DNA from: a virus
Taxonomy: Duplodnaviria; Heunggongvirae; Uroviricota; Caudoviricetes
Strand: one strand, 5' to 3'
Virus record (IMG/VR): IMGVR_UViG_3300010409_000003
Length of the DNA stretch: 64,000 nucleotides
Every line of letters starts with the position of its first letter. The stretch's first letter is position 1. A program made the translations under genes and the position numbers. The notes beneath the pieces are model-generated. The model made no database searches and had not been told where the DNA came from. It saw only the letters and a program-made list of their open reading frames with translations. Below are positions 42,557 to 45,088 of the stretch, piece by piece.

Positions 42557-45088
42557 TTGAGTAATAAAGTTGTTATCCAACCACAGTGACAAAGAGGGTC
42601 ACAAGAGTTAGCATTTAATATAACTAACAAAGGTGTTGATGTAGTAATATATGGAGGCGCAGCAGGATCGGGAAAAGCACTAAAACATGGAATGCCAGTT
42701 CTAACTAGTAATGGTTGGGTCAACATAGAAGATATTTCTGTAGGAGATTCTGTGGTAGGTTCTAAGGGCAATATAGAAGATGTTCTAGCTGTATACCCAC
42801 AACCTAAAAAAGATATATATAAGGTCACTTTTCAAGATGGTGGTGATGTAGAGGTTTGTGGTGAACATTTATGGACTATTACTATCGCAGGATATGGACA
42901 AAAGAACCGTAAAACTATAGACACTTTAAAACTAAAGAGTATACTAGATAAAGAATATGGTAAACCGAAAGGTTCTCGTAGACGTTACCCCTTAATTGAC
43001 CTACCCAGTAACTTAGAATACTCTCAAGATAAAGAGCATAAACTACACCCATACTTAGTGGGCTGTCTATTAGGCGATGGCTCTATCAATAAAGAAGTGG
43101 CTATCACATCTGCCGATGAAGAACTTATTGAGAGGTTGAGGTCATTAGGTTATAAAGTAAATAAGAGGTCTTCTAAGTATGCATACGGTATACACAATAT
43201 AAAAGATGAACTTATTTCATTAGGATTATTTGGACATCAATCTTACACAAAGAGTATCCCAGACGAGTATCTGAACAGCACTTATCTTAATAGGCTTGAA
43301 TTACTAAGAGGTCTTATGGATACAGATGGTTGTGCTAATCTAGATACATCTCTAGAGTTTTGTACAGTCTCTACCCAGTTAGCTAAAGACATGCAATACC
43401 TTATTAGAAGTCTAGGTGGTACTGCAACTATAACTGAGAAGAAAACACCGTCTCCTTTTGGAAAAGCCTATACACTATATATAAGATATCCGAATGGTTC
43501 CGATATATTTCACTTAACTCGTAAGAAAGAAAGATGTAAGGTTAAGAAGATTAAAAATAGAGTTGTTAGTGTAGAGTTAGTAGGTAAAGACTATTCGACT
43601 TGTATTTCAATTACAGGAGAAGATAAACAGTTTATTACCAAAGACTTTATAGTAACTCACAACTCACATTTAATGTTAATGCATCCACTACAGCATGTAC
43701 ACGATGAGAACTTTAACGGTATATTCTTCCGTAGGGTTACTACTCAGTTAGTAGGTGCAGGTGGTCTATGGCCTGAAAGTCAGAAGATGTATAAACCATT
43801 TAAAACTAAAACAAGAAACAAACCTCAATACCAACATGAATTTCCTAGCGGATGTACCTTAACGTTTGCACATATGCAGCATGAGGATAACTGTGAGGAT
43901 CATCAGGGTCTTCAGTATTCTTTTGTAGGCTTCGATGAGCTAACCCACTTCTCAGAGAGGCAATTTACTTACCTCTTATCCCGACTACGTTCAGAAGCAG
44001 ATAGTGATTCTTATGCTTTCGCTTCGTGTAACCCAGATGCAGATTCTTGGGTTATAAATTGGATAGAGTGGTGGTTGTTGGACTCAGGATTACCTGATCC
44101 AGATAAGCAAGGTAAGGTAAGGTACTACATCATATTAGATGAGAAACCTGTCTTTAGAGATACGGCTGAACAGTTAATAGAAGATTTCCCTGATGCATGT
44201 AAGGTATGGAATCCTGTAGATGATAAGTACATTATAGTGCAACCTAAGTCCTTCACTTTCATAGCAGGAACTATCTTCGATAATCCTATACTAATTAAGA
44301 AAAACCCTAAATATCTAGCAGAGCTTAACTCTTTACCTAGAGTAGAACGTTCAAGACTACTAGAAGGTAACTGGTATGCTAGGGCAGAGGGGAGTAACTA
44401 CTGGAATAGAGATTGGTGTGAGAATGTACCTTATCCTAACTTCAAGACTACTAAATGTCGTGCATGGGATAAAGGAGCCAGTGTACCGAGTGAGAAAAAT
44501 AGATATGTCGATCCCACTGCCTCTATAAGAATGGAGAAAGGTGAGAATGGTATTTATTATATCATAGGGGATTTTATACCAGAAGGTAAAGATGAGAAAT
44601 CAGATATTTATGGTAAGTTCTGTAGGTTAGCAGGGGAACGAGACACTATTATACTCAACCAAGCTGAAGCTGATGGTGAAGAAGTTCCTGTAATACTACC
44701 TAAAGATGTTGGTCAAGCAGGTATAGTTGAGTTCCAAGAGTCAGCTAAGAAGTTGTTATCAGAAGGTTATATAGTACGTGCAGATGCAATGCCTACTAAT
44801 AAATCCAAGTTAACTAAGTTTTCTCCTTTTGCAGCAGCTTGTCAAGCAGGTCTTGTACGAATAGTTGAAGACTCATTCCCCAATAAAGCTACACTAGATG
44901 CTTTCTACAAAGAACTAGAGTCCTTTGATGGTGAACGCTCTACAGCACACAGGAAAGACGATTGGCCTGATGCATGTGCCACAGCATTCAACTACCTCTG
45001 TAAAGAACGTGTAATTAAGATAGTCCCTCGTAATCAAAATAATGATCCTACACTAGCTAAGTCTGTGTTAGATAGTATGAATATATAA
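42557..45088 (+). CDS. terminase large subunit interrupted by an intein; the N-extein contains an in-frame TGA at 42587
   Basis: SD AAGGAGG (42544-42550) then TTG at 42557. The frame reads MSNKVVIQPQ-TGA-QRGSQELAFNITNKGVDVVIYGGAAGSGK, then the intein, then S-HLMLMHPLQ... This reconstitutes the Walker A motif GAAGSGKS. The C-extein of about 474 aa ends SVLDSMNI. Confidence 0.65.
42677..43663 (+). mobile_element. intein (about 329 aa) with a LAGLIDADG homing-endonuclease domain, inserted in the terminase P-loop
   Basis: N-terminal Hint block VLTSNGWVNIEDISVGDSVVG...CGEHLW. Two LAGLIDADG motifs (YLVGCLLGDGSI and LLRGLMDTDGCA). C-terminal FIVTHN followed by the +1 Ser that completes GKS. It starts with Ala, which is non-canonical. 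Confidence 0.7.

Follow-up and report, generated by a model that had tools for sequence, protein, structure and literature searches.

How does a tailed phage make its large terminase when the reading frame of the gene is closed by a stop codon after only ten codons? The question is raised by terL, the gene for the large terminase subunit (TerL), in a stretch of 64,000 nucleotides (nt) from the IMG/VR virus record IMGVR_UViG_3300010409_000003 (Caudoviricetes), the whole of which is referred to here as the window. The original prediction placed the start of terL at TTG 42557, with a strong Shine-Dalgarno (SD) sequence 6 nt upstream and an in-frame TGA at 42587, and these elements are present exactly as claimed. 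It also held that no canonical start codon lies between the TGA and the intein that interrupts the gene, and this is correct as well: the earliest in-frame ATG, GTG or TTG past the stop is ATG 42692, five codons inside the intein, and a ribosome must pass the stop to make a TerL with its P-loop. On balance, we favour the interpretation that TGACAA at 42587-42592 is a short untranslated coding gap that is bypassed by a stop-hop. It belongs to a family of inserts tied to a Seg-like homing endonuclease.

The stop codon is part of an insert

The core of the terL SD sequence, AAGGAGG, occupies 42544-42550; its complementarity runs on to AAGGAGGTG (42544-42552), and the spacer between AAGGAGG(TG) and the TTG at 42557-42559 is 6 nt long (tgtagg). 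The TTG is followed by nine sense codons (AGT AAT AAA GTT GTT ATC CAA CCA CAG) and then by TGA 42587-42589. Past the TGA the frame continues with CAA AGA GGG TCA CAA GAG and, further on, GGA GGC GCA GCA GGA TCG GGA AAA, and the Walker A motif GGAAGSGK (42653-42676) is in the same frame as TTG 42557 and TGA 42587. The Pfam matches in terL are Terminase_6N, Terminase_6C, LAGLIDADG_3 and Hint. The arrangement CAR-TGA-CAR has just two occurrences in the whole window when both strands are counted, which, together with the orthologous TTG and SD and the stop-containing inserts at this position in eight other loci, speaks against a chance arrangement.

A protein search with the spliced extein returned 3,377 homologues, of which the best 120 were examined. 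The N-terminus of the homologues reads M..VVIAPQ-KGSQELA(M/F)N...GGAAGSGKS, and that of the window, VVIQPQ-stop-Q-RGSQELAFN, is two codons longer. The PQxGxQ spacing is unbroken in all 98 N-complete homologues, none of which has one or two extra residues. At the DNA level, 34 distinct loci are uninterrupted at this site, as are about 75 IMG/VR loci of the family, and the TTG start and SD of the window are orthologous to the starts of the uninterrupted terL homologues. In L002, L012 and L025, which lack the insert, CCN CAR is directly followed by ARR GGN. The 77% identical relative L002, for instance, has CAG CCA CAA AAA GGT, compared with CAA CCA CAG TGA CAA AGA GGG in the window, which is 6 nt longer.

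The same insert is found in close relatives. L001 (JGI 3300038701), whose TerL is 88% identical, reads TTG...CAA CCA CAG TGA CAA AAA GGT and has many synonymous differences downstream, and the sequence of L121, L122 and L123, found in three JGI metagenomes, is CAG TGA CAT AAA GGG. A comparison of the window, L001 and L121 over the first eight codons past the insert shows six synonymous changes and one Arg/Lys change, and the stretch is therefore translated in this frame. These three have no ATG, GTG or TTG between the gap and the Walker A lysine, with Phe at the position where others have Met. In the window clade, the ribosome must start at TTG 42557 and continue past the insert. Judged from the aligned sequences, the terL segments on both sides of the gap are under protein-level selection, each in its own frame. 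The six codons preceding the gap show no synonymous change in this clade, compared with six in the eight codons following it, a contrast that could reflect either a recoding signal or a recent co-conversion tract beside the endonuclease gene described below.

Wider searches added little to this set. Neither megablast nor blastn with the region gave anything useful among 50,697 phage records, and the cassette was found in no isolate of known host. Scans for PQ-TGA-Q in IMG/VR and the GTDB genomes, and for PQ-TRR-Q, the SD cassette and the 3' end of the endonuclease gene in IMG/VR, recovered solely the two known IMG/VR contigs and chance matches, and a scan of JGI metagenomes with the protein found distant relatives only. 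A sequence search of the PDB found no significant relative; a weak match to PhoH (E = 0.24), in which the motif falls upstream of the P-loop, is no more than a hint.

Inserts at the same site in other terL lineages

Sister loci were sought in the DNA behind homologues that had been called from an internal Met, and among loci reached via the neighbouring endonuclease gene. Homologous inserts are present in eight loci from other data sets (L001, L121, L023, L024, L026, L117, L118 and L120). Together with the window they represent six TerL lineages, namely the window clade, L023, L024, L026, L117/118 and L120, which are 46-58% identical pairwise. Every insert is 6 or 7 nt long and sits directly after the CAG of the conserved N-terminal 'PQ' (Table 1). 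Excising exactly the insert restores APQ/xGxQE(L)A in all sister loci of Table 1 and PQ/xGxQE in nine loci (the slash marks the junction). The insert lineages are polyphyletic, each being nearest to uninterrupted relatives, which indicates mobility. The TerL of L120 is 100% identical over 226 amino acids to P0027, a protein with an uninterrupted N-terminus.

Three of the inserts, those of L117, L118 and L120, are 7 nt long. L117 and L118 have a stop after the CAG in the incoming frame and another directly before the resume codon in the outgoing frame, so the two halves cannot be joined by read-through or by one shift of frame, and a single ±1 frameshift is ruled out in both loci. Between L117 and L118 there is one synonymous change on each side of the gap, CAG to CAA (Gln to Gln) before it and CGT to AGA (Arg to Arg) after it.

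The codon before the gap is CAG in all nine insert alleles, compared with 7 of the 34 uninterrupted ones (CAA 27 : CAG 7; about 22%); the lineages may share one ancestral cassette, so these nine alleles are not independent observations. The codon that follows CAG is UGA in seven of the nine loci, in the context UGA-C in the window. The window, L001 and L023 have a CAG...CAA pair, and the two codons match if tRNA-Gln(UUG) reads both. In the window as a whole, CAG is the minority Gln codon, with 124 occurrences vs 371 of CAA. GUG, as GUGA or GGUG, is kept in all gaps and is a substring of the extended SD complement. Its conservation may be due to pairing with ribosomal RNA, to immunity from the nuclease or only to shared ancestry.

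A separate peculiarity concerns the uninterrupted L025 (130-172; JGI 3300059824), which seems to use a non-canonical ATT or ATC start behind an AGGAGGG SD (…IIDQLVYRPQKGAQE). P0077 and P0086, truncated like L025, may have a similar non-canonical start.

Association with a Seg-like GIY-YIG endonuclease gene

An open reading frame (ORF) of about 220 residues lies directly 5' of terL in L001, L023, L026, L117, L118/119, L120 and L121-123. Its product ends in ...LGWGFxPKEV, and its final codons overlap the terL SD. The ORF matches Pfam SegE_GIY-YIG with 38 bits in L001 (cut-off 25) and more weakly in L023 and L026, and by tblastn it is about 35% identical to genes annotated in T-even phages as segB-type homing endonucleases. 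By these matches, it is a Seg-like free-standing homing endonuclease gene of the GIY-YIG family. A search with the endonuclease protein gave seven clusters; the genomic context was read for six of them, which with the L001 copy makes seven lineages, and in all seven an interrupted terL adjoins the endonuclease gene. The parts of the L001 copy lie in two different frames, which makes it a pseudogene.

In the window and in L024, the gap is present and the endonuclease gene is absent; tblastn found none in the window. The spacer in front of terL in the window scores 39 and 32.5 against the last 45 nt or so of the endonuclease genes of L001 and L121, respectively, vs 14 against the native spacer of L002. 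On the strength of these best alignments, which are short, the 39-nt spacer is tentatively and probably the 3'-terminal remnant of a deleted endonuclease gene. The window lineage has lost the endonuclease gene yet retained the gap. For P0027, the uninterrupted twin of the L120 TerL, the comparison is at the protein level.

We also considered the possibility that the SD AAGGAGGTG was brought in by the endonuclease gene, and rejected it. The uninterrupted L035 has no endonuclease gene and shares the same SD, which is thus native to terL.

Near its 3' end (L118 4640-4666), the endonuclease gene of L118/L119 has five T's vs four in L117. The extra T changes the end of the product to …GWGFYLKGGER, compared with …GWGFTSKEVKDE in L117 (a stop follows in each), which may represent an early stage in the decay of the gene.

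Other mobile elements also occur in this part of the genome. The terL region of L001 (3500-6000; JGI 3300038701, Ga0401683_000008) holds five selfish or intervening elements in about 2.5 kb: the frameshifted GIY-YIG gene upstream, the 6-nt gap, an intein and two group I introns. The first intron (4241-4459; 45 bits, under the Rfam gathering score) interrupts the Walker A codons, and the second lies at 5732-5964 (99.7 bits). The gap-free L002 (427-660) and L012 (about 2765-2995) have an apparent group I intron at the Walker A site of L001, after GGTGGTGCT. Evidently, mobile elements of different kinds share the Walker A site as a hot spot; the window has there an intact Walker A followed by the intein. 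In cultured Aeromonas phages (2L372X, phiA009, phiA047 and others), which have the closest terminases among isolates, terL is annotated in two pieces, and in some of these split pairs an HNH homing endonuclease lies between the pieces.

A proposed hop over the gap

We suggest that translation of terL would proceed as follows. Initiation would take place at TTG 42557. At codon 10, peptidyl-tRNA-Gln would be positioned on CAG 42584 with the poorly terminating UGA-C in the A site. The tRNA would then uncouple, the mRNA would slide by 6 nt, and the tRNA would re-pair on CAA 42590-42592, after which decoding would resume at AGA 42593, nine bases having given one Gln. If one tRNA-Gln(UUG) reads both codons, pairing would be weaker (wobble) at take-off and full at landing. 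The product, MSNKVVIQPQRGSQELAFN... (MSNKVVIQPQRGSQE...), would be collinear with every uninterrupted homologue and could be recognized by the peptide VVIQPQR, with GSQELAFNITNK next; the intein would then splice out. At the DNA level, by analogy with T4 gene 60 and MobA, the insert would break the endonuclease target within a motif intolerant of extra residues, and genomes carrying the endonuclease would thereby be immune to their own enzyme. If this analogy holds, the insert probably protects terL DNA against the endonuclease.

Several observations weigh against a hop. The 6-nt gap of the window keeps the frame, and read-through of UGA-C would also give a full-length TerL. Only three of the nine loci have a Gln codon as the landing triplet; in the other six it is CAT in two (L024 and L121), TAA in three (L026, L117 and L120) and TGA in one (L118). 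To land on TAA or TGA, the tRNA would have to form a G·U pair at the first position, for which we know of no precedent. A third-position mismatch at landing, which may be compared with the CAT triplets, has been documented in gene 60 constructs (10.1101/2024.12.09.627546). In L026 and L120, CAG is followed by the sense codon GTG, so that not every locus would have a stop in the A site at take-off, and in L120, which has no nearby stop in the incoming frame, a +1 frameshift adding two Val is formally possible. The 7-nt lineages have an in-frame ATG after the gap, the Met of LAMN, from which internal initiation is conceivable, and translation between gap and Met in these lineages is indicated by one synonymous Arg change in a very recent pair. 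No conserved RNA structure or other stimulator was found: RNAalifold gave no pairs for the nine insert sequences, and a 5-bp GTGAC/GTCAC hairpin, present at the stop in the window, is absent from L001 and L023. In E. coli, stop-hops without a stimulator are reportedly inefficient, at about 1% (Weiss et al. 1987). With regard to the endonuclease, a distant GIY-YIG gene (32-34% identical) occupies the slot upstream of an uninterrupted terL in L043 (1776-2540; IMGVR_UViG_3300020050_007239).

Read-through and other explanations

Another explanation is site-limited read-through of the UGA by a near-cognate tRNA, most likely tRNA-Trp, at a low rate, with the stop serving to throttle the level of TerL. 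The product would carry two extra residues, …IQPQ-W-Q-RGSQE…, and its diagnostic peptide would be VVIQPQWQR. Six loci, the window among them, have a gap that keeps the frame. The terL stop is followed by C, unlike all nine ordinary TGA stops of the window, and UGA-C is reportedly the weakest context for termination in E. coli (Poole et al. 1995) and the weakest for RF2. With the extra residues, P would in effect be changed to W in the motif and the tail would be longer, and among the homologues the length of the tail is variable and a few have A for P. However, the homologous 7-nt inserts cannot be read through, and the insert of L026 has TAA, which is hard to read through. TGG or any other sense codon at the position of the stop is found in none of 98 proteins and none of 34 loci, and a single mutation from stop to sense, which would be expected to become fixed if two more residues were tolerated, has occurred in none of the six lineages. 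Read-through also leaves the CAG/CAA pair and the invariant CAG unexplained. The site-limited read-through or recoding put forward in the original prediction is thus possible for the window, but it does not extend to the sister inserts of 7 nt, and there is no recoding of TGA across the window. We regard read-through as an unlikely explanation overall, though for the window alone it is a real alternative.

A third explanation is that the N-terminal mini-ORF is a leader only, and that TerL is made without MSNKVVIQPQ by reinitiation or internal initiation past the stop. An in-frame ATG occurs eight codons past the gap in L023, L024, L026, L117, L118 and L120, and gene callers start there. However, this Met belongs to LAMN and is the family consensus in uninterrupted genes also, none of the candidate internal starts is preceded by an SD, and the stretch from the gap to the Met changes synonymously, with the APQ side kept as well. 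In the window, L001 and L121, the position of the ATG is taken by Phe and there is no ATG, GTG or TTG before the Walker A lysine. Among possible alternative starts after the stop, ATA and TTA were rejected as well, since they lack an SD and are not specific to the interrupted alleles. The coupling or reinitiation listed in the original prediction lacks support, since a start codon is missing and protein-level selection acts on both flanks in one frame, and this explanation is very improbable.

It can scarcely be that the stop is an artefact of sequencing or assembly, or that terL is a pseudogene of a defective phage. A lone early in-frame stop in an essential gene does look like an error or a fresh null mutation, and L011, which was assembled from SRR5035895 in Logan and matches the window with 100% identity across 4.5 kb, TGA included, may come from the same sample and thus may not be an independent check. 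However, stop-containing inserts occur at the same site in independent JGI, ENA and Logan assemblies and in all six diverged lineages, with the remainder of each ORF intact. The window differs from its homologues by six bases, not one, and there is purifying selection downstream of the stop. A base-call error, as considered in the original prediction, is refuted, because the same TGA is shared with diverged relatives from other metagenomes that have many synonymous differences around it. The comparison of orthologues bears out the stop of the original prediction as real and conserved in relatives, and shows that the TGA is part of a 6-nt insert.

An altered code or a suppressor, with UGA read as sense throughout (code 4/25 or recoding of phage late genes) or decoded by a suppressor tRNA or as selenocysteine, has hardly any probability: the G+C content of the window is low (0.29-0.38) and stop-codon recoding reportedly occurs in phage late genes (Borges et al. 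2022), but TGA terminates 9 of the 79 long ORFs, several of which abut or overlap the start of the next gene, reading TGA as sense (code 4) adds only about 2% of coding length and rejoins no other gene, and the sister inserts contain TAA or shift the frame. No tRNA genes were found in the window and no suppressor tRNA, including the opal suppressor considered in the original prediction, in the window or in 12 related loci; an Rfam search that included the selenocysteine insertion element SECIS gave no match at E<=1.

Features of the terL region

The features of the region are summarized in Table 1 together with the inserts of the sister loci. The boundaries of the intein were set from homologues reading GSGKSHL.. 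at this position. Its first residue is Ala (GCA 42677), it ends in ...VTHN, and it contains a LAGLIDADG endonuclease domain. The Trp in 'GEHLWTI', the Cys in 'DYSTCISI', the C-terminal T-H-N and the Ala in place of a first Cys or Ser resemble the WCT pattern of class 3 inteins. The start codon of the gene upstream of terL, ATG 42179, is preceded by the SD AAGGAGAG. A Pfam search with this gene gave no match. In L001 and L002 its orthologues, which have the same C-terminus, lie directly 5' of either terL or the endonuclease gene. Further downstream, an ORF of 296 amino acids (46815-47705) overlaps the 3' end of a portal-like gene (45407-46987) by about 170 nt in another frame, and its true start probably lies further downstream.

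Table 1. Coordinates of features at the terL locus of the window, and inserts found at the equivalent site in sister loci
Sequence	Feature	Coordinates	Strand	Remarks
Window	Upstream gene, probably small terminase subunit by position	42179..42517	+	ORF; C-terminus ...PVIKMTAD, then stop
Window	Spacer between upstream gene and terL, contains SD	42518..42556	+	39 nt
Window	Shine-Dalgarno AAGGAGGTG	42544..42552	+	Identical in 9/9 insert alleles and in uninterrupted L035
Window	First coding segment of terL, MSNKVVIQPQ	42557..42586	+	TTG + 9 codons; orthologous to M..VVIAPQ N-termini
Window	Proposed take-off codon CAG	42584-42586	+	Last codon of first segment
Window	Proposed coding gap TGACAA	42587..42592	+	TGA 42587-42589 (C next) and CAA 42590-42592, proposed landing codon
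Window	Second segment of N-extein, resume codon AGA then RGSQELAFNITNKGVDVVIYGGAAGSGK	42593..42676	+	Walker A at 42653-42676
Window	Intein between P-loop Lys and Ser	42677..43663	+	329 aa; Pfam LAGLIDADG_3, Hom_end_hint
Window	TerL C-extein	43664..45088	+	SHLMLMHPLQ... to TAA stop
L023	Insert			CAG [TGACAA] AAG; 6 nt
L024	Insert			CAG [TGACAT] GCG; 6 nt
L026	Insert			CAG [GTGTAA] AAA; 6 nt
L117	Insert			CAG [TGATTAA] GCT; 7 nt
L118 / L119	Insert			CAG [TGAGTGA] GCT; 7 nt
L120	Insert			CAG [GTGGTAA] GAG; 7 nt

Comparison with known systems

The bypass cassette of T4 gene 60 is reportedly paired with the homing endonuclease MobA (Huang et al. 1988, Bonocora et al. 2011). All phages that have the endonuclease contain the cassette, as do several from which the endonuclease has been lost, and it prevents self-cleavage (Manning & Atkins 2022, 10.1101/2022.08.31.505936). 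The region of gene 60 that holds it is too conserved to accept extra residues (10.1101/2022.08.31.505936). In the same way, the terL insert is a probably non-coding element within a highly conserved part of a phage gene that is essential, some dozens of bases 3' of a free-standing endonuclease gene. It is present beside every endonuclease gene of the family whose context was read and in some genomes that have lost or pseudogenized the endonuclease, its distribution is polyphyletic, and in seven of the nine loci a stop follows the proposed take-off codon. The proposed logic would also be shared, in that the insert would break the target of the nuclease and bypassing would spare the protein. However, the terL gap is 6-7 nt long compared with 50 nt, the host gene is terL and not a topoisomerase gene, and the endonuclease is Seg-like GIY-YIG and not MobA. 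The proposed take-off codon is CAG, whereas gene 60 has GGA as its take-off and landing codons. There are no conserved stem-loops and no sequence homology to the gene 60 cassette, and the terL gap is an analogue and not a member of that family. With take-off at codon 10-11, the nascent peptide is too short for a tunnel signal of the gene 60 type.

In synthetic stop-hops, a stop lies between two codons that match, and their natural occurrence has been stated to be unknown (PMC5009743, citing Weiss et al. 1987, O'Connor et al. 1989). The CAG-UGA-CAA of the window resembles them in having Gln codons on either side of a stop, in that nine bases would give one amino acid and in that the product would differ from the read-through product by two residues. 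Unlike these engineered sites of low efficiency, the terL site is evolutionarily kept in an essential gene, and relatives of the window have non-matching landing triplets and 7-nt gaps.

The large terminase of the Streptomyces phages phiHau3 / StrepC.1 has gaps of 7-10 nt and is a candidate for bypassing (Antonov et al. 2023, PMC10732093; Smith et al. 2013 cited there). There, too, short non-coding blocks with conserved junctions interrupt a phage large terminase in a small minority of the related genes, and extra residues have been argued to be intolerable. However, take-off in that system follows the rare 'hungry' codon UUA, for which sensing of host development has been proposed, whereas the codon in terL is CAG, usually followed by a stop, in phages of low G+C content. 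The terL insert is linked to a homing endonuclease gene, and the position in the gene and the terminase family differ.

The A1 protein of phage Qbeta is a product of programmed UGA read-through, which usually gives a minor, C-terminally extended product beside a functional short one. It shares with terL of the window an in-frame UGA in a leaky context and a coding sequence that goes on in the same frame. In contrast, the short product of terL would be a peptide of ten residues and the long product is essential, and the sister inserts shift the frame.

The endonuclease itself resembles SegB, SegE, SegF and SegG of T-even phages in its GIY-YIG N-terminal domain, its identity to the segB type, its free-standing, intergenic location and its variable presence among near-identical phages. 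In the T-even phages immunity arises via ordinary target polymorphism, whereas in terL it would come from a stop-containing in-frame insert. Our searches of the literature did not turn up any account of an interrupted terL with a link to a GIY-YIG gene. The only cases of bypassing named in a preprint of 2024 are gene 60, the Streptomyces terminase candidate and yeast mitochondria (10.1101/2024.12.09.627546).

Significance

Programmed bypassing is among the rarest of decoding events, its accepted or well-supported natural cases being T4 gene 60 and its homologues, the 'byps' of yeast mitochondria and the candidate in the Streptomyces phage terminase. We consider the chances evenly balanced that the inserts described here represent a second, independently evolved partnership of an endonuclease and a bypass, in which a Seg-like gene and a gap of 6-7 nt move among terL genes, and the ribosome hops from an invariant CAG 10-11 codons into the gene, without the signals of gene 60, and lands even on UAA or UGA; the window would then provide the first natural stop-hop. 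If this is true, the gap would be a minimal natural bypass signal of only 6-7 nt with several natural variants, and it would be the second instance of a selfish endonuclease and a recoding element travelling together. It would also favour the view that bypassing arises as a means of concealing nuclease-resistance inserts in motifs that cannot be changed. If read-through takes place instead, terL would be an unusual case in which a stop codon is conserved and serves to limit the output of an essential packaging enzyme. For the annotation of phage genomes, gene callers truncate such terminases at an internal Met or inside the intein, and sites of this kind are missed in metagenome catalogues.

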